Shown: piece by piece, positions 8,071 to 27,616 of the stretch
Numbering within the stretch: position 1 is the stretch's first letter
Layout of the letters: each line of letters starts with the position of its first letter
Assembly: GCA_964487735.1 (NCBI GenBank)
Contig: CAZASJ010000007.1
Coordinates: 8,446 to 72,445, forward strand
Direction of reading: 5' to 3'
Length of the DNA: 64,000 nucleotides
DNA from: an uncultured Bacteroidales bacterium
GTDB taxonomy: Bacteria > Bacteroidota > Bacteroidia > Bacteroidales > B18-G4
Notes under the pieces: model-generated
Told to the model about the DNA's origin: nothing
Database searches by the model: none
What the model saw: only the letters and a program-made list of their open reading frames with translations
Made by a program: the position numbers and the translations under genes

Positions 8071-9015
8071 CTATATTTTTTTCTTAAGGTTTTTAATAAT
8101 CTCTGTCGATACCCAAAAGATATCCTGCCCGGGGGTATGTCGCATGAAGAATAAATATTTCCCGTCGGGAGAAACTACTGGAAAACGCTCCATTTTCTCT
8201 GTGTTTATTTTATCTCCCATATTGATTGGAGTTCCCCAATTATTGTCATCAGTTTTAAAGCAAATGTATATATCAAGGCTTCCAAAACCTTCACTGTTCA
8301 ATCCTGAAAAGATGAGATAACTATTATCGGGTGAAACAAAAAATGCCCAAGCCGGTCTGAAATCAGAATGAATGATGACGGTATCCGGTATAGAAAATTT
8401 ACCGTCTGTATATTTAAATTTCAAGGGTTTTTCTTTTCGATTATAGGCGTAATTACCCATGTGGTAGGCATAGCCTTTTGAATTAAATGAGGGAGTCCAA
8501 TCACCATCTGCGGTATTTAATGGCTCTCCTGCATTGATAGGCTTGCTCCAGCCATTATCTGTCCGATTAACATACCAAACATCCTTTTCCCCATACCCTC
8601 CTTCTATGCCTGTGGAATAAAAATAAAGTCGATTTCCATCCGGACTGAAGCTGGGCCCTCCATTAAGACAAGTCAGATGATCTTTTATAAAATCTGCAAT
8701 CGCAGGTTTTGACCATTCTCCATTTTTAAATTCGGAGAAGTAAATTTGTTCAGAATTCTTCATTGAAGTATCGGCAGGAGGATATCTGGAAGACCAGGCC
8801 GACCAATATATTTCATCTCCTTTTGGAGAAATTGCCATTTGACAATGTTCGGCCCATGTGCTGTCAGAAACAATTCCGGGAGCAAATACTTCCGGGATTA
8901 ACCCAGGAGGTGTCAGCCCGAAATAGGCATCTTCAGATTCAAGAAAATTTTCTTCTGTTTGAGTGCAACCAAGAAGGGCTAATAAAGTGATGAATGAAAG
9001 GAAGATCTTTTTCAT
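8071..9015 (-). CDS. TolB-like PD40 beta-propeller lipoprotein
   Basis: Lipobox LLALLGCTQ. Repeated PD40 signatures SPKGDEIYW, SPDGNRLYFYS, SPDNSYLIFSG and SPDGKYLFFMR. Confidence 0.75.
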   Translation of the reverse strand: MKKIFLSFITLLALLGCTQTEENFLESEDAYFGLTPPGLIPEVFAPGIVSDSTWAEHCQMAISPKGDEIYWSAWSSRYPPADTSMKNSEQIYFSEFKNGEWSKPAIADFIKDHLTCLNGGPSFSPDGNRLYFYSTGIEGGYGEKDVWYVNRTDNGWSKPINAGEPLNTADGDWTPSFNSKGYAYHMGNYAYNRKEKPLKFKYTDGKFSIPDTVIIHSDFRPAWAFFVSPDNSYLIFSGLNSEGFGSLDIYICFKTDDNNWGTPINMGDKINTEKMERFPVVSPDGKYLFFMRHTPGQDIFWVSTEIIKNLKKKI

Positions 9016-11741: not shown

Positions 11742-13564
11742 TAATCCACTGATAATTTACAAATTACGTCGTCTCCACCATCCGGATGCATCGTCATACT
11801 TTCTAGTTCTCCAGCCTCATTTACATTAAATGAAAATTCATAAACCGATCCAATTATAAAGAATTCATTTGGGGATCTTGGAAGTAAGGGAATGTCGCCT
11901 TGTTCAGGTATTTGCAATATCAACTGACTATCATTTTTGATAACAGTAAATAAAAAGCCCGGACTCAATTCAAATTTACCGACATATGTTTCCAGAATGG
12001 CATCTTCAACAGTCACATCTTTGTATAATTCCGCCTTGGTTGGCTCAGGGATGGCATTTAACAACAATCGCCCTACCATTGTATAAGTAGGCGGTTCAAT
12101 GGCATCTTTAGTGATGGGGAAACCTGTAATTCCGGCTTCTCCACGTTGGCCTGCTTCAGCAACAAAACTGATATTTCCATTTTTATCCGGGTGAAATCTA
12201 AATATAAAACTTGAACCAAAGTAGCTTGAGTAAAGGAGCTTATTATTTTTAATATCGATCACTGAAACAAAAGATTTTTTGCGCCCAAGAAATGTGGAAT
12301 TAAAGCTCTTCTCACAGACCGGAAACTCTGAATATAAGGCATTTTCAGTCATGGGTAAATCAGGAGAACTTGTTATTCCTCCAATAATGACAGTATCCTT
12401 ATTAAGAAAATATGCTGACATGACATGCTCATCTTCACTCCCCCCAAACAGGCTGGCGTATTCTAAGGTCATCGTTTCAGAATTAAATACCGACACATAG
12501 CAATCCTGCATCCCTGTATCTTTTATGTTTATCGCCTGATCAGTTAGTGGGAAACTTTCTGCCAAAGTGCTGCCACTTACAATCAATCTGTTTGGTTTTG
12601 CCCACTGTATAGGTGAACTCCAATATCCATTGGTTGCAAAATAGCTGAAATACAAAATTTTACTACCTGTCTCATCTATCTTAGCAATATAATGATCCAT
12701 TAAACCACTAGATTTAGGCATAATTATTTCTTTTCGAAAGGCATTATCAGTTACAGGTAAGTCTGTTGTATAAGTATTGCCTGATATATAAATATTGTCT
12801 TTGTCATCAATGGCAACACCGATAATCCCTTCCCTTGTGCTGCTTCCAAAGAAGGTGGAAAATAAAAGCTTTTCACCATCGTGACTAAATTTAGAAAGAA
12901 AACCATGCATATTATCTTTAATGTCAATGCTACCTTTAGTTAAAGGAAAGTCATTAGACTTGGTAGTTCCTCCAACAACAACATTCCCTTTAGAATCAAC
13001 CTTAATTCCTCCTGAGTTTACTGTTTCTTCAACTTCCCCGCCAATAAACGTAGAAAATATAATATCCGTTCCATCCGGGTTTATTTTAGTTACGAAAACA
13101 TCACCGGCCCAGGTTCCTTCACCATTGAAACTTGTGTCGTAGCTTCCGGCTGTTACAGGAAAGTCGGAAGAATGCGTTCCTCCGGCTATATATATATATC
13201 CTTCATCATCAACCGTTATTGCACTATGATGTTCTCTTTTGGTACCACCAATTAATGTAGCAAAGACGATTTCACCTTCGGGCGTATACTTTGCTACAAA
13301 GACATCTGCCTCTCCTTTAAGTTGTGTTTGATACGCTCCTTCTGTGGCCGGGAAATTCTTATCTCTGGTATTTCCACAAATATAAGTATAGCCATCGCTA
13401 TCGGTATAAATATCGAAACCTGATGCGTATTTATCGGTGTGTGATAGATAAGTAGAAAAACCAAGCGTAAATACCGTGGTATCTTGCAGTTGGTTTGTTT
13501 GCGATTTTAGAATCCCCTGGCATAGCAGCATCGCCAATACCATCATACTAAATTGTTTTTTCAT
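11741..13564 (-). CDS. Secreted SBBP-type beta-propeller repeat protein with small C-terminal beta-domain
   Basis: Signal peptide. At least 6 reiterations of G-x-T-x-S-x-D/N-F/L-P-x-T-x-x-A (GNTRDKNFPATEGAYQ, GGTHSSDFPVTAGSYD, GGTTKSNDFPLTKGSID, GNTYTTDLPVTDNAFR, GSTLAESFPLTDQAIN, GITSSPDLPMTENALY). The C-terminal YVGKFELSPGFLFTVIKNDSQLILQIPEQG..LLPRSPNEFF resembles the DUF3471-type domain usually appended to beta-lactamase-family enzymes (recall-based). Confidence 0.7.
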   Translation of the reverse strand: MKKQFSMMVLAMLLCQGILKSQTNQLQDTTVFTLGFSTYLSHTDKYASGFDIYTDSDGYTYICGNTRDKNFPATEGAYQTQLKGEADVFVAKYTPEGEIVFATLIGGTKREHHSAITVDDEGYIYIAGGTHSSDFPVTAGSYDTSFNGEGTWAGDVFVTKINPDGTDIIFSTFIGGEVEETVNSGGIKVDSKGNVVVGGTTKSNDFPLTKGSIDIKDNMHGFLSKFSHDGEKLLFSTFFGSSTREGIIGVAIDDKDNIYISGNTYTTDLPVTDNAFRKEIIMPKSSGLMDHYIAKIDETGSKILYFSYFATNGYWSSPIQWAKPNRLIVSGSTLAESFPLTDQAINIKDTGMQDCYVSVFNSETMTLEYASLFGGSEDEHVMSAYFLNKDTVIIGGITSSPDLPMTENALYSEFPVCEKSFNSTFLGRKKSFVSVIDIKNNKLLYSSYFGSSFIFRFHPDKNGNISFVAEAGQRGEAGITGFPITKDAIEPPTYTMVGRLLLNAIPEPTKAELYKDVTVEDAILETYVGKFELSPGFLFTVIKNDSQLILQIPEQGDIPLLPRSPNEFFIIGSVYEFSFNVNEAGELESMTMHPDGGDDVICKLSVD

Positions 13565-13681
13565 GTCGATTTTTTAAGTTTACTATATCGACAAACTAAG
13601 TGCCAAAAACTTGTTTTGCAACTAGCAAAATGATGAACAGTTATTTAAAATGATAAACGGTATAAAATCGGGGATAAGCGC

Positions 13682-14404
13682 TTATTTATGCGCTTTTTTA
13701 AGGTTCTTAAAGCAGTTGCGACTTACCTCAAAAGGGCCTTTGATATGCTTCATTCGAACCTGATGGTAGGTTTTTGAATAGGTTTCAACCTTTTCAATGA
13801 ATTTCAGGTTGACGATGCTTGAGCGATGAATTCTAATAAAAAAAGCCGGAGGTAGCTCAAGTTCCCACTGCTTTAAGGTTTTTAAGATGATATAACTAAT
13901 GCCACTTGTAGTTTCTATTTTTGAATGATTTCCTACAGATGAGATGGCGATGATGGTACTTATTTCAACAAATCGTGCAGTACAATTGGTTTGTTTGAGG
14001 TAGATTGAATCGTTATAGTCAAATTTCTTCACAGCATTTTGAGTTGCCGGGTTTTCAGATATTCTGTCGAGCGCTATTTTCAGGCGTTTTGGATCGACCG
14101 GTTTCAAAAGATAATCGCTTGCATTTACGTCAAATGCTTTGATAGCAAATTCATCGTATGCCGTAACAAAGATGATCTTGAAATCAACACAAACTTTATC
14201 CAGTAGGTCAAATCCATTTTCACCCGAAAGTTGAATGTCAAGGAAGACTAAATCAGGTTGGATCTTTTCAATCAACTTTATTGCTTTTGAAATATTATCG
14301 GCCTCGCCACTAATTACCATTTCAGGAAAGTCTTTCAATAAAAAGATAAGCTCTTTTCTTGCAGGGCGTTCATCGTCAATAATGATTGCTTTTATTGTAC
14401 CCAT
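13682..14404 (-). CDS. LytTR-family response regulator (REC + LytTR DNA-binding domain)
   Basis: REC motifs IIDDERPARKEL, DLVFLDIQL, YLLKP. The C-terminal LytTR block is IRIHRSSIVNLKFIEKV. Confidence 0.9.
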   Translation of the reverse strand: MGTIKAIIIDDERPARKELIFLLKDFPEMVISGEADNISKAIKLIEKIQPDLVFLDIQLSGENGFDLLDKVCVDFKIIFVTAYDEFAIKAFDVNASDYLLKPVDPKRLKIALDRISENPATQNAVKKFDYNDSIYLKQTNCTARFVEISTIIAISSVGNHSKIETTSGISYIILKTLKQWELELPPAFFIRIHRSSIVNLKFIEKVETYSKTYHQVRMKHIKGPFEVSRNCFKNLKKAHK

Positions 14405-14407
14405 TCT

Positions 14408-15475
14408 TTATTTAGCTATTTGATTTTTGTAATCACTGATAATTATCTGCGAAATCACCCATGAATTTTTTTCATATAGCCTGAATGAGTGCTTGTCGGG
14501 GAAATAAAGGGAAAGTCGCTTTTTGGTATTTTCTATTCCTGTTTTTGTTCCTTCGCTGCTTTTATCGCATTCAACTAAATGTCCGCTATTGTGAACACTA
14601 ATTTCAAGCTGGCTGTTTGCTTTGGCAACAATTTTTATGTTTAAAGGAATGCTGCTGGATTGCAAACCGAATTTTATTGCATTTTCAACGAGGGGTAGAA
14701 TGATAAAAAATGGAATCTTAATATTATATAGCTTTTCATCAATGTCATAAATAATATTCAGCTTTTCTTCAAATCTGATTTTTTGGATTTCAAGATAGTT
14801 TTTTATGGCATTGATTTCATTTTCAAAAGTATCGGTGGTTCCATTTTGGGATAATGAATACCGAAAGAAATTGGATAACTCTGTAATCATATTTCGAGCC
14901 ACCGTTTTGTCCTCTTCCACCATCGATCGAATGGTATTTAACGCATTAAATAAGAAATGAGGATTGATTTGGTATCGAAGCATTTGCAATTGAGCTTCAT
15001 TGGCAAGATTTGTTGCCTGCAGGGTCATTTCTTTTTGCTTTTTTAAATTAAGCCAATGATTAATGAGAAAATATAAACCTGCGAATGCGATAACAACAAA
15101 CAGAAAACTAAATGCTTTGACAAAATAATCATCACTAAATGATAAGGTGCCGGTCTTTACAAGATCAACAATGAAAGTACCAAGAATCATCCACATCAAT
15201 GAAAGGACATAACAGGCCGGTATAAAGAAGAGAATAAATGCTTTTTTGGATACCTGGTTTCTTTTGCTCAGGTAATTCAGCAGGAAGAATAATAGTGATA
15301 TTATAATATAACCACCTATAAATCTCGAGAAACTCACTAATATAATAGTACTAACAGGAGCCTCAACATAGGGATTGATTAGCCATGAGAAAGCGGTAAT
15401 GAAAAAGTATAACAACATCCCGCCTATTTTGGCTGCTTCAAATATGTAAGTCTCTTTTGGTTTTAAGTTCAACAT
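14408..15475 (-). CDS. LytS/YehU-type sensor histidine kinase
   Basis: Multi-TM N-terminus, His_kinase signature LRYQINPHFLFNALNTIRS, and a C-terminal HATPase-like region. Its stop is 3 nt upstream of the regulator's start. Confidence 0.9.
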   Translation of the reverse strand: MLNLKPKETYIFEAAKIGGMLLYFFITAFSWLINPYVEAPVSTIILVSFSRFIGGYIIISLLFFLLNYLSKRNQVSKKAFILFFIPACYVLSLMWMILGTFIVDLVKTGTLSFSDDYFVKAFSFLFVVIAFAGLYFLINHWLNLKKQKEMTLQATNLANEAQLQMLRYQINPHFLFNALNTIRSMVEEDKTVARNMITELSNFFRYSLSQNGTTDTFENEINAIKNYLEIQKIRFEEKLNIIYDIDEKLYNIKIPFFIILPLVENAIKFGLQSSSIPLNIKIVAKANSQLEISVHNSGHLVECDKSSEGTKTGIENTKKRLSLYFPDKHSFRLYEKNSWVISQIIISDYKNQIAK

Positions 15476-15640
15476 CTGCGAAACAAATGTAGTGAAATAA
15501 AAGATGTTTTTCAGGGTTCAGGTCCTATGCCTGCATTTCTGTAAGATGAGTTTGTCAACAACATTATTGTTAAAAAGAAACAAAGAAATTGACAATTAAA
15601 TTTTATCAGGATTTGGGGAATAAACTATCTTTAAAGAAAA

Positions 15641-16285
15641 ATGTACTGTATGAAAGCAATCGCATTTAACGGAAGCCCCAAACCCAAAGGAAATACATTC
15701 CACGCCCTTAAGATCGTTACTGATGAATTGGAAAAACAAGGAATTGAAACGGAAATTATTACGGTTGGCAATAAGAAAATATCAGGATGTTTAGCCTGTA
15801 ATATGTGTGTTAAAAACAGGGATGAGAAATGCATCCAGAAATCCGATCCGGTGAACGAGTGGATTCAGAAAATGAAAGAAGCCGATGGTATTTTACTGGG
15901 AAGCCCGGTACATTACGCATCCATCAGCGGAAATATGAAATCCTTTCTCGACAGGGCATTTTATGTAGCTGGAGCTAACGGAGGCATGCTTCGTTATAAA
16001 GTAGGAGCCTCAGTAATTGCTGTGAGGCGATCTGGAGGATTAACTGCTTTTCACGACATGAATAATTTCCTTACATATGCCGAGATGATGATCCCCACTT
16101 CAAATTATTGGAATGTGATTCATGGAGCTGCACCCGGAGAAGTGCTTAAGGATGCTGAGGGTGTCCAGATCATGGAAGTGCTTGGACGCAATATGGCCTA
16201 CCTTATGAAGCTTATAGAAGCTGGAAAAGACACAGTGAAAGCACCCGAAAAAACGAGGAAGACTTATACTAATTTTATTCGGTAA
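15641..16285 (+). CDS. Iron-sulfur flavoprotein (Isf)-like NADPH-dependent FMN reductase
   Basis: MKAIAFNGSPKPKGNT flavodoxin-like start. Compact Cys motif CLACNMCVKNRDEKC (Cx2Cx2Cx7C), as in Isf proteins. An alternative start is at 15650. Confidence 0.75.
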   Translation: MYCMKAIAFNGSPKPKGNTFHALKIVTDELEKQGIETEIITVGNKKISGCLACNMCVKNRDEKCIQKSDPVNEWIQKMKEADGILLGSPVHYASISGNMKSFLDRAFYVAGANGGMLRYKVGASVIAVRRSGGLTAFHDMNNFLTYAEMMIPTSNYWNVIHGAAPGEVLKDAEGVQIMEVLGRNMAYLMKLIEAGKDTVKAPEKTRKTYTNFIR

Positions 16286-16529
16286 ACAGAGAAAACCTAT
16301 TCATAGGTCCTGGCTATTTGTAGTACTCAAGCAAACCACACCCCAATCTATTAATAGGCAAATTGAGAAAATGTCCTCCTTTTTTCAAAACAGCTTAATA
16401 ATCGACAATTGAAAATTGATACAGATTAACTATATTTGAAATAGAGAAAGTTCACTTTAGCAATTCACTGAAAGCTGTCCAACTTTCTTTTAAGTCAACC
16501 ACAATACGAAAAAGCATTAAAGCACCTAA

Positions 16530-17423
16530 ATGAACCCTGTCATACTCATATTCATTCTTATAATAATTAGCTTCATATTGTTCTACTGGATTCGCAGATA
16601 TAACATGAGATGGAAATCGCCGAAGGAAGCTTTTCCGGCAGAATGGAAAATGATCTTAGTGCAGGAAGTCTTATTTTATAATTCATTGGCAGAAGACGAG
16701 AAAAAACGATTTGAATATAAAGTTCAGGAATTCCTATTGAATTGCAGAATAACTGGTATAGAAACTACGGTAGATGAGACTGACAAAGTGCTTATCGCGT
16801 CTAGTGCTATTATTCCAATATTTGCATTTGATGATTGGAAGTATTCTAATATTCATGAAGTTTTACTCTACCCGGCAATGTTTAATAAAAACTTTGACAC
16901 AGAAGGCACAGACAGAAATATTCTGGGGATGGTTGGAAATGGTTATATGGAAGGGATCATGACCCTGTCAAAACAAGCACTTAGACATGGATTTAAAAAT
17001 GAAACAGACAAGAAGAATACAGCTATCCATGAGTTTGTACACCTGATAGATAAGACAGATGGAACCATCGATGGTATTCCAACATTATTATTGGAAAAAC
17101 AATATACCATTCCATGGATTGACCTGATCAGTAAAAAAATAGAGGATGTATATGGAGGGAATTCAGACATCAACCCATATGGAGGAAGCAATCGGGCTGA
17201 ATTTTTCGCAGTTGCCAGCGAGTATTTCTTTGAACGTCCAAAATTGCTGAAGAAAAATCATCCTCAATTATACAATCTGATGGAAAAGACCTTTAAACAA
17301 GATATGTCGTTGAGGCCATTAAGAAAAAATAAAGTTAAGATTGGACGCAATAGTCCTTGTCCATGCAAAAGCGGAAAAAAGTTTAAGAATTGTTGCGGAC
17401 GTATACATTATCAGAAATCATGA
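16530..17423 (+). CDS. M90 (MtfA-like) zinc metallopeptidase with N-terminal TM helix and C-terminal SEC-C motif
   Basis: TM segment VILIFILIIISFILFYWI, HExxH in AIHEFVHLID, MtfA-type NRAEFFAVASEYFFERP, and terminal SPCPCKSGKKFKNCCG (SEC-C metal-binding motif). Confidence 0.85.
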   Translation: MNPVILIFILIIISFILFYWIRRYNMRWKSPKEAFPAEWKMILVQEVLFYNSLAEDEKKRFEYKVQEFLLNCRITGIETTVDETDKVLIASSAIIPIFAFDDWKYSNIHEVLLYPAMFNKNFDTEGTDRNILGMVGNGYMEGIMTLSKQALRHGFKNETDKKNTAIHEFVHLIDKTDGTIDGIPTLLLEKQYTIPWIDLISKKIEDVYGGNSDINPYGGSNRAEFFAVASEYFFERPKLLKKNHPQLYNLMEKTFKQDMSLRPLRKNKVKIGRNSPCPCKSGKKFKNCCGRIHYQKS

Positions 17424-17443
17424 TCATGAAAAGTCATGAGATT

Positions 17444-17552
17444 GTTCCCGGGAAACTTCACAATACCGACATGCAACCGGAGCGAGAGGTCCTTCCTCAC
17501 TCCGCTCCTCAGGAATTCCCCCGAGTACTCGGGGGAAGGACGAAGGACCCTC
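17444..17552. other. GC-rich multi-palindrome element (possible terminator, structured RNA or repeat)
   Basis: Perfect 22 nt palindrome TTCCCCCGAGTACTCGGGGGAA (17516..17537) and TTCCCGGGAA palindrome (17445..17454). Further pairings are GGAGCG..CGCTCC and GGTCCTTCC..GGAAGGAC(C). Direct CCTCAGG repeats flank the core. It is clearly more GC-rich than the surroundings. Confidence 0.5.
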
Positions 17553-17686
17553 AGGCTTTTAGCAAAACGCCAATAAGCCAACCCCTCAATGCAATAACAC
17601 TAAAGAATGAAAAAGAAGTCCTTTTTTAAAATCATTCCTAAGATAAAAAACATAAATTTGGCACTTTAATTTCAATAGGGAAGAAG

Positions 17687-18103
17687 ATGCAAAAGCTCAT
17701 ATTTTCTGAAAAAATTTACACTTATCATATCGACTTTGCCGGACACGTTAGTAACATTGTTTACATCCAATGGATGGAAAATTGTCGTATCCGTTTTTTG
17801 GAGGCTATTGGCTTTCCGGTTAGCGATCTTAACGAAGAAGAAGGCATAATACCCGTACTGGTTGAAACAAATATCATCTACAAAACCCCCTTCTATATGG
17901 GAAATGAAGTGCATATTGAGATGTGGGTTTCGAAAATGAACAATGCATCTGCCATTATGGAATTCCGTTTTTTCAATGAGAAAAAAGAACTATGTGCACG
18001 TGCCTGGCAGAAAGGATTGTTTATTGAGCGCAAATCAAAACGTCCCAAGCGAATAAGTCCGGAACACAAAACAGGATTTGAAAAATATTTTATTGAAGGA
18101 TAA
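17687..18103 (+). CDS. 4HBT/YbgC-like acyl-CoA thioesterase
   Basis: 138 aa hotdog-size protein. The N-terminal block YTYHIDFAGHVSNIVYIQWME is typical of the 4HBT thioesterase family. Confidence 0.8.
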   Translation: MQKLIFSEKIYTYHIDFAGHVSNIVYIQWMENCRIRFLEAIGFPVSDLNEEEGIIPVLVETNIIYKTPFYMGNEVHIEMWVSKMNNASAIMEFRFFNEKKELCARAWQKGLFIERKSKRPKRISPEHKTGFEKYFIEG

Positions 18104-18410
18104 ATTTTATCTGCATTAACATCATTTGATTCTCTATAAGAATCCATCTTATTTCGAGAAATTTCAATTCCGTCAATTTCTAATAACTATATCAAAAAAG
18201 CGAATCTAACAACTGAAATTGACCTCTAACACTCAAGTATAGTGGCCAGGCAAATGGAACACTCTTACCGCTTCATAAATATGCAATAAAAGGGGGGTAA
18301 TAGTAGCGGTATTTGCAGTTTGTACGGTTAGAATACCGTATTATTTCGTACCTTTATCGCAAGCCCTGATATGGGATCTTTTATTTCCTGATAGATTCAT
18401 AACAAAAAAT

Positions 18411-21323
18411 ATGAAGAAGCAATTATTTCGTTTTCTGTTCATTCTACTGATATGCTCCACATTTTCAATCACAAATACTAAAGCACAAAAGATCAGCAAT
18501 GAGGAAATCAGCCTGCGTATTGCATCATACAAGGCCGATGTGCGTGGCCCGTACAAGGACATCCGGTGGTTTTGTCCTGATGGATCATTCAAATCGCCAC
18601 AGGAAAGGTGTACTGAGCCAGGAGGGGTGCAGCGTGCCAGGTATAAGGACGAAATTATCAGTCTTGCCAATTCCAATCATGTTTTTCTTGGGCAAATATT
18701 ATCAACCACACCTTATGCCGACTTCTGGGATGAAAGCAATAATTATTCAAGAATAAAGCAATTCCAGATCGAAAAATACCTGATCGGGGTGGATAAGGGC
18801 TGGATCCTCAGGAAGGCTCAGTATTACCGTGGTGCTTTCCAGGCTGAAGATGAGGAACTCTGGGGCCTTGGCTTTTTCAACTGGCTGCTTGCCGATGATG
18901 CGGCTATTCAAACACAGTTCTTTCTGATCCGACAGGCATGCAAAGACATTCCTCACAATAATGATGATAATACCAAACAAAAAATCCGCCTAAACTCTAA
19001 GCTTATTTCCGATTCCTATCCACCTTTTCTTGATATCAGGGTAAAGATACATGGCCAGCCGGATAAATCTGATATTCAAAAAACAAAGGATTTCAGGCGA
19101 AGCCATCAGGAAAAAATGGCTGCTCCCGACCTGAAAATGATGGATGATCTGATCACAGATCTTGAGAAGCAGTACAAAGCATTTGATATTCAATCATTGG
19201 ACCGTTTAATTATGAAGCTGCCCGGCGGATCAAGCCTGAGGGAAACACTTCTCCATTTTCAAAGCAACTTCAAATCTTCAAAGAATGGGTTTGAAAGGAT
19301 CCAATTATTATCGGAGATCCTTGAAAAACTCAGAGCATCCATATTATCTGTCAAAACTTCAAGTGCAAGACTGGCTGTTATGGACATTTCCATCATTCTG
19401 GAAGACCTTCTGTTCAGGGAAGCCGGAGAATATAAGCCGGCAACCATAAAAGAATCCCTGCTGTACATCAACCAACTCGGACGGGCATCTGCCGGATGCG
19501 GATATCTCGAAGTGTGGGAATGGAAACATTTACAGAAATTCCTTTACGACGGCTCATATGACAAGATGAAGCAAGCCGAATTTATGAAGCTGTTTGAATC
19601 ATGCAGAAATATTGTGGAATGGGGCAGCAGTATGTTTATGGCTGTATATGAGGATGATATAAAACTATACAGTGGCTTTGAGCCCAAAACAGAAGGCTTT
19701 CTTGACGATAAGATTCGATCTTCTATACTGCTTCAGGTGGGAATTCAGGTAAGCTCCCTTGGCGACATTATGGCCCGCTACCTCCCTGCCGGCAATAGAA
19801 TTCTGGATATTGCAGGGCAGACATCCGCACGAGGGCTTAATCCGGGCTTTGCCAAAGGTGAACTGGTAGTGGTTCAAGGGTCAATTGATGGCCTTGTTGT
19901 GGAGAAAGACAAGATCTATATATTCAATAAGCCTCCCTCCGACCTCAAGCCTGTTGCCGGCATTATGACCGTAAGCGAAGGCAATCCGGTATCGCATGTA
20001 CAATTGCTTGCCAGGAACCTTGGCATTCCAAATGCCGTGATCTCAATGCAAAACCTTGATGAGCTTAAAAAATATTCAGGGCAGCATGTGTTTTACGCTG
20101 TTTCGTCGAAGGGTGTGATCGTTATGAAAAGAGAAAAGGATATGAATGAGGAGGAGGCCAAACTCTTTACAAAGAAAGAAAGGAGTGAAAATAAGATCAG
20201 CGTTCCGGTAGAAAAGATACGTTTGGATAATATGCGTGTTTTAAACCTCCGCGAAGTAGATGCTTTTTCATCGGGTATAGTGTGCGGACCAAAAGCTGCC
20301 AATCTTGGTCAATTAAAAAAGTTGTTCCCCGACAATGTAGTTGAGGGGCTCGTCATACCATTTGGCATTTTCATGCAGCATATGCAAATAGCCATGCCCG
20401 GACAACAAATGACATACTGGGAATACCTACAGAATATATTTGAGCAATCACGGATGATGAGACTATCGGGCGTGCCGGAAGCGGAAATAGAATCTTTTGA
20501 ATTGGGAGAGCTTGGCATATTCAGGGAAGCCATTGGCCGGATCAGCCTTTCAAAAGAGCTGATTGCCGAGCTTAATCAATTGTTTGTAGCGGTTTTTGGG
20601 AAGAAAATGGGTGAGATCCCGGTTTTCCTGAGAAGCGATACAAATATGGAAGACCTGAAAGATTTTACCGGTGCAGGACTCAACCTTACCCTCTTTAATG
20701 TGGTTTCTGCTGATGCCATTTTAAAAGGCATTCGTGATGTATGGGCATCGCCATACACCGAAAGAAGCTATAAATGGCGGCAGCGATATCTTTTAAACCC
20801 CGAAAATGTATTCCCTTCCATACTAATCATCCCCTCAGTAAATGTGGATTATTCAGGAGTACTGATAACAAAAGGCATTTCCTCAGGCTTGATGGAAGAT
20901 GCCACTGCAGCTTTTAGCAGGGGAGCAGGGGGTGCTGTCGACGGACAAGCTGCAGAGACCTACCTGCTTAAAAAAGCAGGCAAGGATATTTTATTGTTAC
21001 CGGCAAGAGAACCAAGTTATATATCATTACCTGCTTCAGGCGGCGTAAAAAAAGAATTTACTTCATTTGAGAGGGGAGTATTGAATGATCAGAACATTGC
21101 TTCGCTAAGAGAGATTGGGAGGGAAATACGAAACCGCTTGCCCGGCTTTGGCAGCAAGGGCCCTTTTGATATAGAGCTTGGATTTAAGGACAACAAACTC
21201 TGGCTCTTCCAGGTCAGGCCCTTCGTTGAAAATAAGAATGCCATTGGGCAGATTTACCTGGAATCATTGAATCCGATACTTAATGATAAAATGATTATTG
21301 AATTAATACACACCATACAATGA
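18411..21323 (+). CDS. Exported His-swivel / PPDK_N ATP-grasp 'dikinase-like' phosphotransferase with unassigned ~440-aa N-terminal domain
   Basis: Signal peptide MKKQLFRFLFILLICSTFSITNTKAQ. PEP-utilizer mobile-domain motif KPVAGIMTVSEGNPVSHVQLLARNLGIPNAV (His codon at 19995..19997). The C-terminal PPDK_N-type blocks are GPKAANLGQLKKLFP, PVFLRSDTNMEDL, VWASPYTERSYKWR and LWLFQVRPF. No TIM-barrel PEP/pyruvate domain is present. Confidence 0.8.
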   Translation: MKKQLFRFLFILLICSTFSITNTKAQKISNEEISLRIASYKADVRGPYKDIRWFCPDGSFKSPQERCTEPGGVQRARYKDEIISLANSNHVFLGQILSTTPYADFWDESNNYSRIKQFQIEKYLIGVDKGWILRKAQYYRGAFQAEDEELWGLGFFNWLLADDAAIQTQFFLIRQACKDIPHNNDDNTKQKIRLNSKLISDSYPPFLDIRVKIHGQPDKSDIQKTKDFRRSHQEKMAAPDLKMMDDLITDLEKQYKAFDIQSLDRLIMKLPGGSSLRETLLHFQSNFKSSKNGFERIQLLSEILEKLRASILSVKTSSARLAVMDISIILEDLLFREAGEYKPATIKESLLYINQLGRASAGCGYLEVWEWKHLQKFLYDGSYDKMKQAEFMKLFESCRNIVEWGSSMFMAVYEDDIKLYSGFEPKTEGFLDDKIRSSILLQVGIQVSSLGDIMARYLPAGNRILDIAGQTSARGLNPGFAKGELVVVQGSIDGLVVEKDKIYIFNKPPSDLKPVAGIMTVSEGNPVSHVQLLARNLGIPNAVISMQNLDELKKYSGQHVFYAVSSKGVIVMKREKDMNEEEAKLFTKKERSENKISVPVEKIRLDNMRVLNLREVDAFSSGIVCGPKAANLGQLKKLFPDNVVEGLVIPFGIFMQHMQIAMPGQQMTYWEYLQNIFEQSRMMRLSGVPEAEIESFELGELGIFREAIGRISLSKELIAELNQLFVAVFGKKMGEIPVFLRSDTNMEDLKDFTGAGLNLTLFNVVSADAILKGIRDVWASPYTERSYKWRQRYLLNPENVFPSILIIPSVNVDYSGVLITKGISSGLMEDATAAFSRGAGGAVDGQAAETYLLKKAGKDILLLPAREPSYISLPASGGVKKEFTSFERGVLNDQNIASLREIGREIRNRLPGFGSKGPFDIELGFKDNKLWLFQVRPFVENKNAIGQIYLESLNPILNDKMIIELIHTIQ

Positions 21324-22582
21324 TAAAAAGAAGCCTGCGCATATTGATCTTATACATTGCTTTTCCTCTTTACGCGATGACATATCCCATTGATGGTTAT
21401 CAAACAACAGGAATCAAGCGATTGCTTTACCTGCAGCTTGTTGAGGCAGGCGAAATAACAGGAACCCTGCCCAAGGAGGGTGCCCGGCTGGGCCTCAGCG
21501 AAATCAGACTGAACCTGACAGGCCCAAAAGGCGACAGCCTGACTGAAATGCCTGATATTGACAAGAAATTGCAAGCATCCGTAGATGCTTTATTTCCCAA
21601 CATTCATGAAAGTTATTCGCTTTCCATTCTTGATATTACTCCCGGCCGGCCAATCAGATATGCAAAACGCAAAGACAAACAAGGTTTTCAACCCGGCAGT
21701 ATCGCTAAGCTGATTGTGGTGGCCGGCCTCTTCAATGAATTAAAAAACCTTTATCCCGATTCATTTGAAGAGAGACAGCAGCTCCTGAGAGATAAGAAAG
21801 TTGTTGGCGGAAAATGGGTCATCACTGATGAACACACAGTTCCGATATTTGATATTGAGACCAAAACCCTGAAATCAAGGGTTGTCAGGGAAGATGACGT
21901 CTTCAGTTTGTATGAATGGGTTGATTATATGCTATCGGCCAGCAACAACAGTGCTGCCAGTGTAGTGTGGCGGGAAACGATCCTTATTCATGTGTTTGGG
22001 AAAGCATATCCTTATCTTACTGCGGAGCAGACAAATGAATATTTTTCTGGCGTTTCACAAGCACAAATGATGCAATTGGCAGTAGATCTTGTCAATGCAC
22101 CCATCAGGGATGTAGGCATAACAGAAGATGAAGCGCGTTTGGGAAGCTTCTTCACACGGGAAGCCAAGAGGATTATTCCGGGCAAGGGCGGAAGCATCGG
22201 CACTCCTGCCGGATTTATGAAATATCTCGTGGCCATGGAAAGAGGCCTCCTTGTTGATGAACAATCAAGCCTTGAGATCAAGCGTTTGATGTACATGACT
22301 GCCCGACGCATCAGGTACGCCTCATCTGAAGCGCTCAATACTGCAGCAGTATACTTTAAGTCAGGAAGCCTTTATCAATGCGTTGCGGAAGAAGGGTACA
22401 GCTGTGCTAAATATATGGGTAACAAAAGCAATTTCATGAATTCCGTGATCATTGTTGAACACAAAGACGGAACCAAATACATGGTCGTATTGATGTCGAA
22501 CGTACTTAAAAAAAATTCAGCGGCTGATCACAATGGCCTGGCAACACAGATCGACAGAACAATAAGAAAACCCTGGAAATAA
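21320..22582 (+). CDS. Exported class-A-fold (SxxK) serine hydrolase, beta-lactamase/DD-peptidase-like
   Basis: ATGA start/stop overlap with the upstream gene and a hydrophobic N-terminus LRILILYIAFPLYA. Motifs are SxxK in PGSIAKL (Ser codon at 21698..21700), SxN in SASNNS and KSG in FKSGSL. Confidence 0.7.
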   Translation: MIKRSLRILILYIAFPLYAMTYPIDGYQTTGIKRLLYLQLVEAGEITGTLPKEGARLGLSEIRLNLTGPKGDSLTEMPDIDKKLQASVDALFPNIHESYSLSILDITPGRPIRYAKRKDKQGFQPGSIAKLIVVAGLFNELKNLYPDSFEERQQLLRDKKVVGGKWVITDEHTVPIFDIETKTLKSRVVREDDVFSLYEWVDYMLSASNNSAASVVWRETILIHVFGKAYPYLTAEQTNEYFSGVSQAQMMQLAVDLVNAPIRDVGITEDEARLGSFFTREAKRIIPGKGGSIGTPAGFMKYLVAMERGLLVDEQSSLEIKRLMYMTARRIRYASSEALNTAAVYFKSGSLYQCVAEEGYSCAKYMGNKSNFMNSVIIVEHKDGTKYMVVLMSNVLKKNSAADHNGLATQIDRTIRKPWK

Positions 22583-22585
22583 GTA

Positions 22586-25441
22586 TCAGGAAATTTCTTT
22601 TCTGTTTTGGAGCACTTCTATAGTCCTGTTGGCAGAGAGCGCAATTTTGCTGTTCGGGTGATTCACATACTTGCCCACGACTGGAAGAAATTTTTTATCG
22701 TTCAATACTGATATAAGATTCAGGACTGCAAGCTTAACCGTAACATCCCTTCCTTCAAGCAGTGTACTGAAACACTCAGCCTGACCGATATCTTTGATCT
22801 TTAATTCATTTATTCCGTCCTTAGTAACTGATTCCTCCACAGATGTTTCAATAATGGGAATAAGGATCCTTTTCAGGTTGATCTCAAGTAGGTTATCAAG
22901 AAACTCAATGGCGCTGATCCTCAACTCTGATTTTTCACTTTTAAGGCCCTGATATGCGATATCAATTTCGTCCTGGGGATATTTAAGTCCCAGAAATTTA
23001 AAAATTCGGTCCAGGTTATCATCAAGCCTTCCTTCTAAAAGCTTGATCAGTCCAAGCCTTGTTTCAAAAACAATGTTCTCATCTGTTTTTCCTGAACGTG
23101 GCTTTACAATCCTATTTTGTTGCACATAAAGTGCTGTAAGGATATTCTGAAATAATTTTGCCTCATCAAAGATATTGTTAATGATTTGTTTTTTATTGAA
23201 AACCAGGTAAGGGCTTTGTCCTTTTATCACCGTCAGGCTGCGCACTGCTTCGCTTCTTACTATGATATCATCAAAATCGAGCAATTCAAACATAAAATCT
23301 ACACCAGCCTGGGTACCTATCCTTTCAACTACGGATGGGATGGCCCTGACGAAATCAGTGTTTGCCTTGTTTAGAATAACTTCTTCTTTCAGGAGGGTAA
23401 TGATTTTAAATCCATAATTTGCAAGGGCAGCCGACGCATCTGCACTAAATTCTTTACGCAATAGAAACTGATAAAGTACTGGTATAAATAATTCATCAAG
23501 GCTTATTCCGGCAGATTGGATGCCAGCCCTGATCAACTCCGCACTCTGCCCATTCAGGGCTTCCAGTATAAAAGGATAATATTCATCAAGGTGTGCACTG
23601 CCAATGGCTTTAAGAACATTTTTCTTTTTAAACAATCCTTCTTCCGTGTTTCCGCTCGTTTTCATCTCCGCAATTGATGCGCCAATGATAGCAGAAAGCT
23701 TAAATATCTGTTTCAGTTCGGGATTATCCCTGGTTTCATTTGCAATGGCAAGCAATGTTGCATACTTAATATGATAATCTCGATCAAGAAGAAATCGATT
23801 GATCACACTTTTTCTCTCATATGCAGAGTGTTCTATAATGTATTCTATTGCAGAAATCCGAACAGCCAAAGATTTATGGTGTGTAAAAGGGAGTATCTCA
23901 TCCGAAAGGTTCCGGGATCGATAAAAATAAAGCCTGCTTATTGCTTCCTTTATGACCTCCTCTGATGGGTGATGAAGCAACTTTTTGATTGGAATAAATA
24001 GCATTTCATGTTGAAAATCATCTGTATTCCGGAGTGCCAATAAAATTTGATTTTTAGTGCCATTTTCAAGGACCTTTGCCAAACCACCATAAACGGATTC
24101 TTTGTTCAGGTCGGGCATATTCTTCGATTCTTTCGATTGTTCTTTGTTCAGGTTCAGTTTCAATTTGAACAATTTGACGTATTCAAGGCGTACCCTGGAG
24201 GCATAAAAAAACCAGAGCAGGGTAAGCAAAATAATAACAAGGCTAATCACCTCCACCGGCAACTTAAAGGCAATAACCAGGGTGATCAGGATCAGCCCGC
24301 TCATCCCTGTAGCAAAGCTATCGACAAAAACATCAATAAAAGTCTTTGCCTGGTTCTTTGTTTCAATGGGAATAGGCAGGGCCAGTAATTCGATGGCAGA
24401 TTTATTAACTGACTGCTTCAGGCTTCCATCAGCGGACTTTATCAGGATAGCCGACCACAGGGCCGGAAAGAACATTACAGATAAGGCACCTATAAATATT
24501 CCGGCGGGAAGAAAGAACAATGACATGCCCACCCCAAAGGTTCCGACCACCCTTCGCGTAAGAAATAACTGGATGAGCAAGGAAATGATATTGATGTTTG
24601 AGAACCAAAACCCAAAGAAAGCGGTCAGTTCATCCTCATCGGTTATAAGCAGGGATGAGATGGCCGAAAACTGATAGTCGACCAGTCTTGCAACGAACAC
24701 ACCGATTGCTGTAATCAGGGCCAGGTAAGTCAGGTGTTTGGACTTCACAATAAGCCGGAGGGGGTGTTCTGATACCCTGCCCATCCTCTTCCTCCTTTTA
24801 TAGAGAGAAGTTGCAGTACTTTTATTGCTGTTCCATATCATCCTGATCAGAAAAATACAGACCACCAGAAAAAAAGCACCAATAAACAAAAGGTTTTCAC
24901 TCCCGATATACGGAGCAAGGATGGAGGTAAGATACCCTCCAAAGATGCCCCCGGCAATAGCAGCTCCCCCGATGAGGTTAAACAAGCGTTTCGCTTCGCG
25001 TGTGTTGAAAATAATGTTTGCCAGGATCCAGAACTGCGAGGTAGCCAAAACAGCAAATATCGCAACCCAAACATAAAAAACGTATAAGATCCATACATCT
25101 ATGATATTCATCTTTAGCAAAACCGTGAAAAGAAGGATGCATATCACAGAGATTAGCAAGGTATAGTGGATAATCCGGTTAAGAGGGATCTTATTGAGCA
25201 GCCTCGAATAAAATGTTGTAAGGATTCCTGCAAAAACAGCAACCAGAATAAATGCTATCGGAAGGTTTTCAATACCGGCATTTATAAGAAATAAGGAATT
25301 GATACTAGGCTTAATGATGAGAAGGGTTGATATAAGCAAAAAGATGGAAAGTTGCATCAGGAAGGTCCTTCTCAGTTCACCTTCCCGAATATCAAACGTC
25401 CTGTAAAAAAAATCTTTCGCCTTATCAACAGAGATCATCAA
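22586..25441 (-). CDS. TLC/Npt-family nucleotide-carrier-like membrane domain fused to a C-terminal HEAT-repeat domain
   Basis: About 11-12 hydrophobic segments in the first ~430 aa, with the TLC-type signature SQFWILANIIFNTREAKRLFNLIGGAAIAGGIFGG. The C-terminal ~500 aa have HEAT-like units (SLAVRISAIEYII, DIIVRSEAVRSLTVI, SELRISAIEFLDNLL, DVTVKLAVLNLISVL, NSKIALSANRTIEVL). Confidence 0.75.
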   Translation of the reverse strand: MMISVDKAKDFFYRTFDIREGELRRTFLMQLSIFLLISTLLIIKPSINSLFLINAGIENLPIAFILVAVFAGILTTFYSRLLNKIPLNRIIHYTLLISVICILLFTVLLKMNIIDVWILYVFYVWVAIFAVLATSQFWILANIIFNTREAKRLFNLIGGAAIAGGIFGGYLTSILAPYIGSENLLFIGAFFLVVCIFLIRMIWNSNKSTATSLYKRRKRMGRVSEHPLRLIVKSKHLTYLALITAIGVFVARLVDYQFSAISSLLITDEDELTAFFGFWFSNINIISLLIQLFLTRRVVGTFGVGMSLFFLPAGIFIGALSVMFFPALWSAILIKSADGSLKQSVNKSAIELLALPIPIETKNQAKTFIDVFVDSFATGMSGLILITLVIAFKLPVEVISLVIILLTLLWFFYASRVRLEYVKLFKLKLNLNKEQSKESKNMPDLNKESVYGGLAKVLENGTKNQILLALRNTDDFQHEMLFIPIKKLLHHPSEEVIKEAISRLYFYRSRNLSDEILPFTHHKSLAVRISAIEYIIEHSAYERKSVINRFLLDRDYHIKYATLLAIANETRDNPELKQIFKLSAIIGASIAEMKTSGNTEEGLFKKKNVLKAIGSAHLDEYYPFILEALNGQSAELIRAGIQSAGISLDELFIPVLYQFLLRKEFSADASAALANYGFKIITLLKEEVILNKANTDFVRAIPSVVERIGTQAGVDFMFELLDFDDIIVRSEAVRSLTVIKGQSPYLVFNKKQIINNIFDEAKLFQNILTALYVQQNRIVKPRSGKTDENIVFETRLGLIKLLEGRLDDNLDRIFKFLGLKYPQDEIDIAYQGLKSEKSELRISAIEFLDNLLEINLKRILIPIIETSVEESVTKDGINELKIKDIGQAECFSTLLEGRDVTVKLAVLNLISVLNDKKFLPVVGKYVNHPNSKIALSANRTIEVLQNRKEIS

Positions 25442-25468
25442 AGCAAATTTTTTATTTAATTGCGATTG

Positions 25469-26401
25469 TTACAAATCCGAACTCATCATCTTGTCAACAA
25501 TCGTAGCCAGTTCACGGAGGATATTCTCTCCATCGGCATCATCGAGCAAAGCTACAAGAATATATTTTCTGTGCGGCCCCCATACCAGTATGGAGTCTGA
25601 ATGAAATGTTTTCCACGAACCTGATTTCCTGAAAAGACGTGCTTGTGGTGCCGCTTTACTGAGTACACTCACAAATTTGTGATTGATTCCGGGGTTGTCC
25701 ATATATTGCATCATCTGTTTTGATCGCTCATAGTTGACCAACTTACCATAGGTCATAAGGTAATAGTATCTGCAGATTTGCGTTACCGTTCCCCCATGGC
25801 TTAATCCTTTCAAAGGATCCGGATGCCTCTCGCCGGTCTTGGCATATCTTTTCCCAACCCATAAACCACCACCATAATCTTCATCGTAAAGTTCATAGGC
25901 CGGATCCTCTAAAACGCTTTCTATTTTATCAAAACCAATAAGATCAATGAGTGCGGTAGCTGATGTATTGCTTGATACACTGATCATTTTACGCATGTTT
26001 TCCTGCAATTCAGGTGTTTCTTCTATTTCCCCCTTTTCGAGGGCATCCATTACAGCCAATAAAATGGCAATCTTTGGCAAACTGGCTGCATACATCATTA
26101 CATTTCCGTTCACACGGGCATATTTGACATCAAAAGGATCCGAAAGATCAACAATACCCACGGCCATTCTCTTCTGACTGATAAGCCTTTTCCACTTTGG
26201 TTTCAAATAAACATTTGCTTCCAGTTTTTTTTGGAAATCTTCATCAATAAGATTTCGTAGAGACATGAGCGAATCCTTCCCAAGATTAATGGGCAATTCA
26301 GGCACCTTTTCTCCGGCAATACTATCTTGCCCCTCCTGGGCATATTGTTGACAAGAAAACTGAAACATGATCAACAAAATCATCCAAATTCTTTTTTTCA
26401 T
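25469..26401 (-). CDS. Exported class-A-fold (SxxK) serine hydrolase, paralog-type of 21320..22582
   Basis: Signal/lipoprotein-like MKKRIWMILLIMFQFSC. Motifs are SxxK in AASLPKI, SxN in SVSSNTS and KSG in RKSGSW. Confidence 0.7.
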   Translation of the reverse strand: MKKRIWMILLIMFQFSCQQYAQEGQDSIAGEKVPELPINLGKDSLMSLRNLIDEDFQKKLEANVYLKPKWKRLISQKRMAVGIVDLSDPFDVKYARVNGNVMMYAASLPKIAILLAVMDALEKGEIEETPELQENMRKMISVSSNTSATALIDLIGFDKIESVLEDPAYELYDEDYGGGLWVGKRYAKTGERHPDPLKGLSHGGTVTQICRYYYLMTYGKLVNYERSKQMMQYMDNPGINHKFVSVLSKAAPQARLFRKSGSWKTFHSDSILVWGPHRKYILVALLDDADGENILRELATIVDKMMSSDL

Positions 26402-26770
26402 TGGTATTTCATTAATATTAGTACGTTATATCATACATCAAGACGAGCTAAACGTAAATTGTTACACCAACAATATACTTTAGTAAAATAAATTTTTGAA
26501 ATGATAAGTCGGCCCAATCCTTTTAACTCAAACGTGTCAGGCCTGATCATAACACACCTTTTTCAGGGGCATTAAGTTTGCGGGGGTATGATCAGGTATT
26601 CTCAAAATTAATAAATTAATTCACACCAATATTTTTAAACCTATACACCCCTCATCTTTACGTTAAGATTCAGGATTTAACTTCTAACAAAAGCGAAGCT
26701 TCTGCCCAGTCTGTCTTCAATTAGAAAAACCCAAAAACAGGCTGATGAGATTTTCACTACCTTTACAAAA

Positions 26771-27616
26771 ATGCTGCTTAATATTCATACTAAATATAAA
26801 AAAGAAACAATGAAAGCAATTACATCAAGACTGTTATTTATCTTAATTTTATTGATAGCTATTCCATTCAGCGGAATGGCCCAAAAAAGGCTTAATAAGA
26901 TTATCACTACCGGAGAGATCAAGGTAGGGATGTCCGGAGTACAACCGCCCTTTTCTATGCACAGTAACTCCGACAGCCTGATGGGTTATGAGGTTGATCT
27001 GGCTCAAATGATCGCAGAGTCCATGGGGGTAAAGCTGACAATTGTGGAAATCCCATTTGCAGACCTGCTGAAAGCGCTTGAAGATGGCAAAGTCGATGTC
27101 GTAATGTCCGGGATCACCATCACCCCAAAACGAAACCTGAAATCGATGTTTGTAGGGCCCTACATCGTTTCCGGGAAATCCATTTTGACAAGGTCAGAAA
27201 AACTGGCAGGCATTAACGAGCTCGGAGAACTTAATAATCCAAATGTAATACTGGCTGCTCTGGCAGGTTCGACCAGTGAAGAATTTGTTAGAAAAAACAT
27301 TCCATTAGCACAATTGAAGGTAACAAAGACCCATGATGAAGCAGTGAAAATGGTGATAAATAAACAAATCGATGCTTTATTCGCCGATTATCCTGTTTGT
27401 GTTTATGCCATGTTCCGCTACCCACTCATTGACCTTTCAATATTGGATCAGCCCCTGACCATAGAACCCATAGGCATTGCTTTGCCCGCTGATGGTTTTT
27501 TATTGCATAATCTCCTGCAAAACTATTTAAACTCCCTCCAGATCATTGGTGTCCTTGATGCCCTTGAATATAAATGGTTTGAATCTGGTGAATGGCTTGA
27601 CAAAGTGAAGATGTAA
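26771..27616 (+). CDS. Periplasmic solute-binding protein, family 3 (amino-acid/polar solute type)
   Basis: The likely start is MKAITSRLLFILILLIAIPFSGMAQ at 26810. SBP_bac_3-type blocks are GEIKVGMSGVQPPFS, GYEVDLAQMIAESMGVKL and VDVVMSGITITPKR. Confidence 0.8.
   Translation: MLLNIHTKYKKETMKAITSRLLFILILLIAIPFSGMAQKRLNKIITTGEIKVGMSGVQPPFSMHSNSDSLMGYEVDLAQMIAESMGVKLTIVEIPFADLLKALEDGKVDVVMSGITITPKRNLKSMFVGPYIVSGKSILTRSEKLAGINELGELNNPNVILAALAGSTSEEFVRKNIPLAQLKVTKTHDEAVKMVINKQIDALFADYPVCVYAMFRYPLIDLSILDQPLTIEPIGIALPADGFLLHNLLQNYLNSLQIIGVLDALEYKWFESGEWLDKVKM

Follow-up and report, generated by a model that had tools for sequence, protein, structure and literature searches.

A conserved four-gene module of Bacteroidota linking a predicted NTT/TLC-type carrier to a putatively exported dikinase-like enzyme and two putatively exported SxxK hydrolases

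We examined a 64,000-nucleotide stretch of DNA from an uncultured Bacteroidales bacterium (the window; positions 8,446 to 72,445, forward strand, of contig CAZASJ010000007.1, assembly GCA_964487735.1), within which four genes lie as two convergent pairs: a dikinase-like enzyme (DIK) and an SxxK serine hydrolase (HYD1) on the plus strand, facing a second SxxK hydrolase (HYD2) and a carrier fused to HEAT repeats (NTT-HEAT) on the minus strand (Table 1). These four genes are a real, conserved module, and their arrangement is far beyond chance. The DIK stop codon overlaps the HYD1 start in the ATGA at 21320-21323 (where the sequence reads ...CAATGATAAAA); the two units converge upon stop codons separated by the three nucleotides GTA, i.e., TAA at 22580-22582 for HYD1 and TCA at 22586-22588, which is the TGA of NTT-HEAT on the minus strand; and 27 nucleotides separate HYD2 from NTT-HEAT. 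The boundaries of the four reading frames, the overlap and both gaps had been described in an earlier sequence-only reading of the window, and all were reproduced here. The listed TTG start of NTT-HEAT (25441) is followed by an ATG as its next codon, and translation probably begins there, at 25438, to give 950 amino acids (aa). Scans of 18000-26900 for sigma-70 promoters and intrinsic terminators gave hits at chance level, with no terminator between the convergent stops; the transcripts of HYD1 and NTT-HEAT must therefore either run into one another at the 3' end or stop within the opposing gene. Matches by tblastn suggest that these two convergent genes overlap outright in four of the related loci described below (L008, L046, L054, L061). 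No Rfam family was matched anywhere in the window.

Table 1. Features of the module, with coordinates in the window
Feature	Coordinates	Strand	Size or residues	Basis or remark
DIK, His-swivel/ATP-grasp dikinase-like enzyme, predicted exported	18411..21323	+	970 aa	
DIK signal peptide (predicted), MKKQLFRFLFILLICSTFSITNTKA, cleaved before Q	18411..18485	+	1-25	basic n-region, hydrophobic core, small-residue cleavage site
DIK N-domain, presumed substrate domain	18486..19853	+	26-481	RGPYKDIRWFCxDG...C motif; all-alpha AlphaFold2 (AF2) model
DIK swivel phosphohistidine domain	19830..20093	+	~474-561	aligns to residues 384-472 of phosphoenolpyruvate (PEP) synthase 8a8e
DIK putative catalytic His529, in GNPVSHVQLLARNLGIPN	19995-19997	+	529	SH aligned to the catalytic (T)SH of 8a8e
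DIK ATP-grasp domain, C-terminal to the swivel	20235..21245	+	~609-945	Pfam PPDK_N, NCBIfam and PDB alignments
HYD1, SxxK serine hydrolase, predicted exported	21320..22582	+	420 aa	
NTT-HEAT, carrier plus HEAT repeats	22586..25441	-	951 aa	
NTT/TLC-type carrier domain (predicted)	24152..25441	-	~1-430	family profile and Pfam TLC of orthologues; 12 transmembrane helices (TM) by homology
HEAT-repeat domain, probably cytoplasmic	22586..24151	-	~431-951	Pfam HEAT_2, E 4e-9
HYD2, SxxK serine hydrolase of PBP-A/class A type, predicted exported	25469..26401	-	310 aa	

Conservation of the neighbourhood was assessed with one genome per species carrying DIK, which gave 80 loci from Flavobacteriaceae, Saprospiraceae, Lewinellaceae, Cyclobacteriaceae, Fulvivirga, Roseivirgaceae, Lentimicrobiaceae, Bacteroidales, Marinilabiliales and Balneolales; the named genera with the module are marine or saline, the carriers of the module including Cellulophaga baltica (L060), Maribacter (L023) and Kordia algicida (L062), and full-length DIK orthologues at 53-60% identity are widespread. 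When thirteen window proteins were searched against these loci by tblastn, DIK was found in 80/80, HYD1 in 78/80, NTT-HEAT in 75/80 and HYD2 in 71/80, whereas each of the nine flanking genes occurred in only 0-4 of the 80. All 71 complete loci have the identical order and orientation (DIK and HYD1 on one strand, then NTT-HEAT and HYD2 on the other), the incomplete ones are mostly explained by contig cuts or insertions, and all-against-all clustering of the reading frames in the 80 loci revealed no fifth conserved gene family. One locus (L067, JBFGQG010000427.1) is a 3.6-kb contig binned as Anaerolineales and encodes part of a DIK with 60% identity to that of the window; this is most likely a mis-binned Bacteroidota contig, and not a module in Chloroflexota.

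The linkage survives at much greater distances, although the order of the genes does not. We inspected the context of ten DIK relatives that are 24-34% identical in the N-domain, and five of these loci (L081, L082, L086, L087, L091; N-domain identity 24-29%) retain the complete set of four, arranged in three further gene orders. In L081 the order is DIK, HYD1, HYD2 on the reverse strand, and a TLC carrier; in L082 and L091, HYD2 and TLC are divergent from DIK and HYD1; in L086 TLC alone diverges from the DIK-HYD1 pair, and HYD2 lies on the reverse strand; and in L087, as in L088, the series DIK, HYD1, reverse-strand HYD2 and TLC is followed by a second reverse-strand HYD2. Among the remainder, L084 has DIK, HYD1 and TLC at a contig edge, and two short contigs, L089 and L090, carry DIK and HYD1. 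The guanine plus cytosine (GC) content of the four complete loci that were measured (L081, L082, L086, L087) ranges from 42 to 66%. That the same four components are kept despite this shuffling is strong evidence for a joint function. HYD1 lies immediately downstream of DIK in 78/80 loci, as it does in each of the eight distant loci of module type that were sampled. The 4-nt overlap between the DIK stop and the HYD1 start recurs in L082, L086, L087, L089 and L090; translation of DIK and HYD1 is coupled in these five loci as in the window, and this may point to a complex of the two proteins. The L087 module (12934-17807, same in L088) is 66% GC, with its HYD2 copies at 14224-15165 and 16752-17807, both on the minus strand, and its 746-aa "HYD1" gene call is probably HYD1 merged with an antisense frame of the first HYD2 copy.

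Upstream of the module, as labelled by reading translations, the window encodes a LytS-type histidine kinase together with a LytTR response regulator (13682-15475), and a protein that has a SEC-C-like CPCKSGKKFKNCCG motif at its end (16530-17423), neither of which is kept beside the module in other genomes. A 4HBT-type thioesterase (17687-18103) lies 308 nt upstream of DIK; it was rejected as a module member, being present at 0/80 loci, and its adjacency is probably coincidence. Two 4HBT genes likewise adjoin the module in L084 (L084:5761-6685). In the window the module has no mobile-element genes on either side.

The dikinase-like identity assigned to DIK in the sequence-only reading agrees with the profile searches. 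Pfam PPDK_N (PF01326) matched residues 704-945 with 78 bits against a cut-off of 27 (E 1e-21); the PEP-utilizers family scored 16.2 bits on residues 512-552, under its cut-off of 23.1; and the swivel histidine was located by alignment to PEP synthase 8a8e, which together with rifampin phosphotransferase (RPH; 5hv1, 5fbs) made up the PDB matches. The NCBIfam and PDB alignments place the beginning of the ATP-grasp domain near residue 609, and the 8a8e alignment runs to about residue 942. The domains of DIK follow one another as N-domain, swivel and ATP-grasp, which is the reverse of the order in PEP synthase and RPH. Membership of DIK in the PEP synthase/pyruvate phosphate dikinase (PPDK) families was rejected (no TIM barrel, different order, NCBIfam scores of 75-86 against cut-offs of 598-883), as was membership in RPH, for which NF041857 gave a score of 69 against a cut-off of 999 (E 2.4e-19) and where the order again differs; the score for the PigC equivalog of NCBIfam was likewise far under its cut-off. 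A RIF-binding domain was also rejected, the N-domain matching no RPH structure in the PDB.

The DIK N-domain would define a new domain family of about 450 aa. Residues 1-496 matched nothing in Pfam even at E 10; the AF2 model of residues 26-481 was nearly all helical, with a predicted local distance difference test score (pLDDT) of 84.6 and a predicted TM-score (pTM) of 0.81; and Foldseek with this model found no fold relative in the PDB at E <= 1e-3, the best matches being to 14-3-3 and helical-repeat proteins (E > 0.3, TM-score < 0.2 on the query). When 1.84 billion cluster representatives were searched with the N-domain by phmmer, only 448 clusters matched. The full-length matches listed are proteins of about 970 aa in which some 20-70 residues precede the domain, a uniform position which indicates one architecture only.

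Residue conservation was counted in 75 full-length representatives of the DIK family. His529 was conserved in 69/75, the ATP-binding motif R741-S-D-T-N-x-E-D748 (RSDTNxEDL..FTGAG) and residues E922, Q934 and R936 in 70-72/75, and the two cysteines just past the cleavage site (Cys55 and Cys67, window numbering) in 73/75. As judged by these motifs DIK appears catalytically intact and under strong purifying selection; the sequences among the 75 that lack the catalytic residues presumably correspond to a module-free clade that is considered below.

Export of the three soluble proteins, which the sequence-only reading had also proposed, is predicted family-wide. In each of DIK, HYD1 and HYD2 the N-terminus varies in sequence among orthologues and consists of a basic start, a hydrophobic core and a cleavage site of small residues; the mature protein that follows begins with a conserved stretch (RGPYKDIRWFCxDG in DIK, YPIDGY in HYD1). 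A hydrophobic 9-mer within the first 70 residues was present in 75/80 DIK, 77/78 HYD1 and 71/71 HYD2 sequences, the five DIK orthologues without one being from truncated contigs; and all 14 distant DIKs whose N-termini were inspected showed signal-peptide features, mostly with AxA-type sites. The paired cysteines of DIK (55/67) and HYD1 (354/362) are consistent with disulfides formed in an oxidising compartment. Only a few of the signal peptides are Tat-like, which argues that export is via Sec and that the proteins cross the membrane unfolded; if so, DIK cannot be loaded with phosphate in the cytoplasm.

The SxxK, SxN and KSG motifs named in the sequence-only reading are present in both hydrolases and are invariant among their orthologues: S127-x-x-K130, S208-N-N210 and K347-S-G349 in HYD1 (where Cys354 and Cys362 are invariant as well), and S106-L-P-K109, S142-x-N144 and K258-S-G260 in HYD2. 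By these SxxK, SxN and K[ST]G motifs both proteins are assigned to the superfamily of class A beta-lactamases and the penicillin-binding protein PBP-A. Pfam Beta-lactamase2 (PF13354) matched HYD2 at E 2.7e-16 and HYD1 barely (22.4 bits against a cut-off of 22). Sequence-only searches of the PDB, with single sequences and with profiles, gave marginal matches for HYD1 and HYD2, those of the HYD2 profile being weak matches to PBP-A Tll2115 and the beta-lactamase 4ewf. The AF2 model of HYD1 (pLDDT 89.5) is predicted to have the class A beta-lactamase/PBP-A fold: Foldseek matched it to 5tfq, 2j9o, 4ewf and CTX-M at E 2.5e-10 to 1e-9, with TM-scores of about 0.7 on the target, and the structural matches include the class A beta-lactamases CTX-M, Toho-1 and KPC-2 together with PBP-A, at 11-17% identity to the solved structures. 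The two hydrolases had been called paralogs, and that stands for a common superfamily (hhalign of the profiles, 92% probability, E 6e-7) but not for any close relationship; the BLASTP E value of 0.07 and the 18% profile identity rule out a recent paralogy and indicate an ancient divergence. The description of HYD2 as lipoprotein-like fared worse: a lipobox-like cysteine was found in 4/71 orthologues, and most have an ordinary signal peptide.

NTT-HEAT is assigned as a genuine NTT/TLC homologue (TC 2.A.12) through its orthologues and the family profile, and transport itself is predicted. A profile of the first 440 residues matched the AtNTT1 structures 9j3j (E 8.8e-15) and 9j3n (E 1.1e-12) over TM4 to TM12; Pfam TLC (PF03219) was matched by 24/35 orthologues, with a best E of 1.4e-13; the family motif K-x-S..E-L..P...K...K..IDVV is conserved; and orthologues are annotated in their source records as Npt1/Npt2 or as AAA ATP:ADP antiporters. 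The HEAT part was found in every case, with HEAT_2 matched by 35/35 orthologues and the profile matching alphaRep and HEAT structures. Searched alone, the window carrier gave HEAT_2 and a weak MFS_1 match (E 1.4e-5). The lysine plus arginine counts of the carrier loops fit an N-in topology which, with 12 TM by homology, would put the HEAT domain in the cytoplasm. In the distant modules the carrier is an unfused TLC protein of some 400-550 aa that lacks the HEAT domain, and this points to the carrier, not the HEAT domain, as the core partner. One of them (L086:8272-9915, minus strand; 547 aa) carries an Ig-like He_PIG domain in place of HEAT repeats; on the cytoplasmic side, such a domain following TM12 would be out of the ordinary.

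Taken together, an inner-membrane carrier of predicted NTT/TLC type is genetically locked to three proteins with putative Sec signals, a dikinase-like enzyme and two SxxK enzymes. We suggest that the carrier runs outward, so that ATP (or another nucleoside triphosphate, NTP) would reach the periplasm and AMP or ADP plus phosphate would return. DIK would then pyrophosphorylate its own His529 from ATP and pass the beta-phosphate to an envelope substrate bound by the N-domain, and both SxxK enzymes would act upon the same substrate, before or after its phosphorylation. Our leading guess for this substrate is a peptide-bearing envelope polymer such as peptidoglycan, because the hydrolases resemble PBP-A. 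The HEAT domain could gate the carrier from the cytoplasmic side, with ATP released only on demand. Of the mechanisms considered, ATP export with an envelope substrate fits best, and we hold it tentatively, as having not quite an even chance of being right. The broader proposition, that many free-living Gram-negative bacteria export ATP through an NTT-family carrier for an exported dikinase to phosphorylate an envelope component which two PBP-like enzymes process, seems to us possible rather than probable.

Several observations weigh against ATP export to an envelope dikinase. Neither the direction of transport nor the substrate can be read from sequence, and the characterised NTTs import. The window carrier, taken by itself, did not match Pfam TLC even at E 10, and the TLC half of the TLC/HEAT assignment made in the sequence-only reading therefore stands for the family, as its HEAT half does for the window protein also. 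The export calls were made by hand inspection of sequence features. Periplasmic ATP could be lost through channels of the outer membrane, at a cost to the cell. The N-domain has no fold relative, and the peptidoglycan guess hence depends solely on the PBP-A-like hydrolases. In two of the 80 loci, L039 (Flagellimonas nanhaiensis) and L049 (a Lutibacter metagenome-assembled genome), DIK and HYD1 are present with no carrier or HYD2 in the fetched flanks; these two genes may have been relocated or lost. Finally, there is a clade of DIK-like paralogues without the module (L085:2543-5299, P0415; L092:8001-10865, P0410), of 918-954 aa, with a signal peptide and an N-domain 29-30% identical to that of DIK, no PPDK_N match and no hydrolase or carrier nearby. 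They have a conserved context of their own, with DUF2911/TPR upstream and SnoaL_5 plus a WYL regulator downstream, on contigs rich in Por_Secre_tail (type IX secretion system, T9SS), and they may be a pseudoenzyme offshoot.

If the target were exogenous, the module could be a periplasmic detoxification or resistance unit, in which an antibiotic or an algal or cyanobacterial toxin is phosphorylated with ATP supplied by the carrier and the hydrolases act on the target or its relatives. The ATP-grasp matches to the rifamycin-inactivating phosphotransferase NF041857 and to the RPH structures fit this, as does the presence of CTX-M, Toho-1 and KPC-2 among the best structural matches of HYD1; the RPH score, however, is far below its cut-off, the domain order differs, and the N-domain does not match the RIF-binding domain. 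The module is also conserved in a vertical, core-like manner, in many families at 50-60% identity with fixed synteny and no mobile-element genes beside it in the window, unlike a mobile resistance island. We regard an exogenous target as unlikely.

Somewhat less likely still is a carrier that imports, with the exported enzymes processing external or periplasmic organic phosphate, DIK making an NTP or other nucleotide, and the NTT salvaging it. Every NTT characterised to date either imports or exchanges, taking nucleotides or NAD into the cell (PMC5381601); PPDK-type dikinases are reversible, as established biochemically; and the module occurs in marine or saline genera, from habitats where phosphorus scavenging is common. 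Such a scheme, though, has no known periplasmic phosphoryl donor of sufficient energy, and water dikinases of the glucan, water dikinase (GWD) and PEP synthase (PEPS) types are effectively irreversible. It would also leave the two SxxK enzymes without a role, and the conserved gene set includes no phosphatase, nucleotidase or binding protein.

We give little credence to a DIK that turns over no nucleotide in the periplasm and serves the PBP-like enzymes as a scaffold, as a binding protein or as a single-use factor, with NTT-HEAT as a regulatory protein or a carrier of something other than nucleotides (e.g., a cell-wall fragment, cf. AmpG). The MFS_1 rather than TLC match of the window carrier would suit this, and the clade without PPDK_N or module suggests that the scaffold can outlive the catalytic domain. 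In the module-linked family, however, the histidine and the ATP-binding motifs are kept in 69-72 of 75 sequences under strong purifying selection, the carrier family matches NTT structures and not AmpG-type MFS proteins, and the distant carriers are plain TLC proteins. That the four genes are mere neighbours with no common function, as their lying in two convergent transcription units and not in one operon might have suggested, is effectively refuted by the identical arrangement of 71/80 loci amid variable flanks and by the re-clustering of the same four components, in other orders, in deeply divergent genomes.

The usual account of the periplasm is that it contains no ATP, and Tol-Pal, TonB, Bam and Lpt are explained as ways around this lack. 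In the module a predicted nucleotide carrier is paired with a putatively exported ATP-grasp dikinase, a pairing both genetically defined and widespread, by which the question of periplasmic ATP becomes directly testable; it would also provide a first functional context for the NTT-HEAT proteins, which were uncharacterised in a 2017 survey (PMC5381601). Should ATP export prove true, this would be the first dedicated ATP supply to the periplasm, and the first function both for the NTT-HEAT family and for NTTs of free-living bacteria; transport would then run the opposite way to that in the energy parasites Rickettsia and Chlamydia. It would point to phosphorylation of the envelope or of incoming compounds in marine Bacteroidota and in other lineages, although occurrence outside Bacteroidota is not proven.

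All components except the new N-domain fall into known superfamilies, and the system as a whole matches no known kind. The sequence-only reading knew of no described system of this composition, and we found no published description of one in the open-access PubMed Central (PMC) and bioRxiv literature. The NTT-HEAT fusions themselves were reported as monophyletic, widespread and uncharacterised, with a neighbouring cNMP-binding domain as the only context mentioned (Major et al. 2017, PMC5381601). By architecture, a TLC domain with C-terminal HEAT repeats, the window carrier is assigned to that group; the dikinase and hydrolase neighbourhood was not reported there, and the distant modules described here use an unfused TLC protein. 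In the same open-access literature no later characterisation of NTT-HEAT was found, later uses of the term dating from 2019 under titles that are not on function.

Lig E resembles DIK as an enzyme with a signal peptide that needs ATP outside the cytoplasm, and the availability of periplasmic ATP is called an outstanding question in a recent report (10.64898/2026.03.22.713542); Lig E belongs to an unrelated enzyme family, and the passages of that report consulted here mention no dedicated carrier. PBP-A (Tll2115) and the class A beta-lactamases share with HYD1 the predicted fold, and with both HYD1 and HYD2 the SxxK, SxN and KSG motifs; HYD1 differs from them by about 100 extra N-terminal residues and an insertion near 160-196, and both hydrolases differ in being genetically tied to a dikinase and a carrier. 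RPH and PEP synthase/PPDK have the ATP-grasp and the swivel His domain, and the same dikinase chemistry is expected in DIK. They differ from it in that the DIK swivel precedes the ATP-grasp, with no TIM barrel or RIF-binding domain and with 69-86 bits where 598-999 would be needed for membership; they are also cytoplasmic, whereas DIK has a putative signal peptide.

DIK also resembles the plant enzymes GWD and phosphoglucan, water dikinase (PWD), in the order of substrate domain, His domain and PPDK_N. GWD is reported (Mikkelsen et al. 2004/2005) to have a substrate-binding region, then the phosphohistidine domain, and a C-terminal nucleotide-binding domain. DIK differs from it in lacking CBM45 or CBM20 (there being no Pfam match in residues 1-496) and in having an all-alpha N-domain. 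NTTs exchange ATP against ADP plus phosphate (PMC2606016); in the plastid an NTT imports ATP, GWD phosphorylates starch, and hydrolases can then attack it (PMC12892837). The plastid enzyme works in a compartment fed with ATP by an NTT-family carrier, as DIK is proposed to do in the periplasm, and the differences lie in the compartment (a plastid versus a bacterial periplasm) and in the hydrolases (amylases versus SxxK acyl-serine enzymes). In its proposed logic the module resembles the plastid at night, which is its nearest functional analogy.

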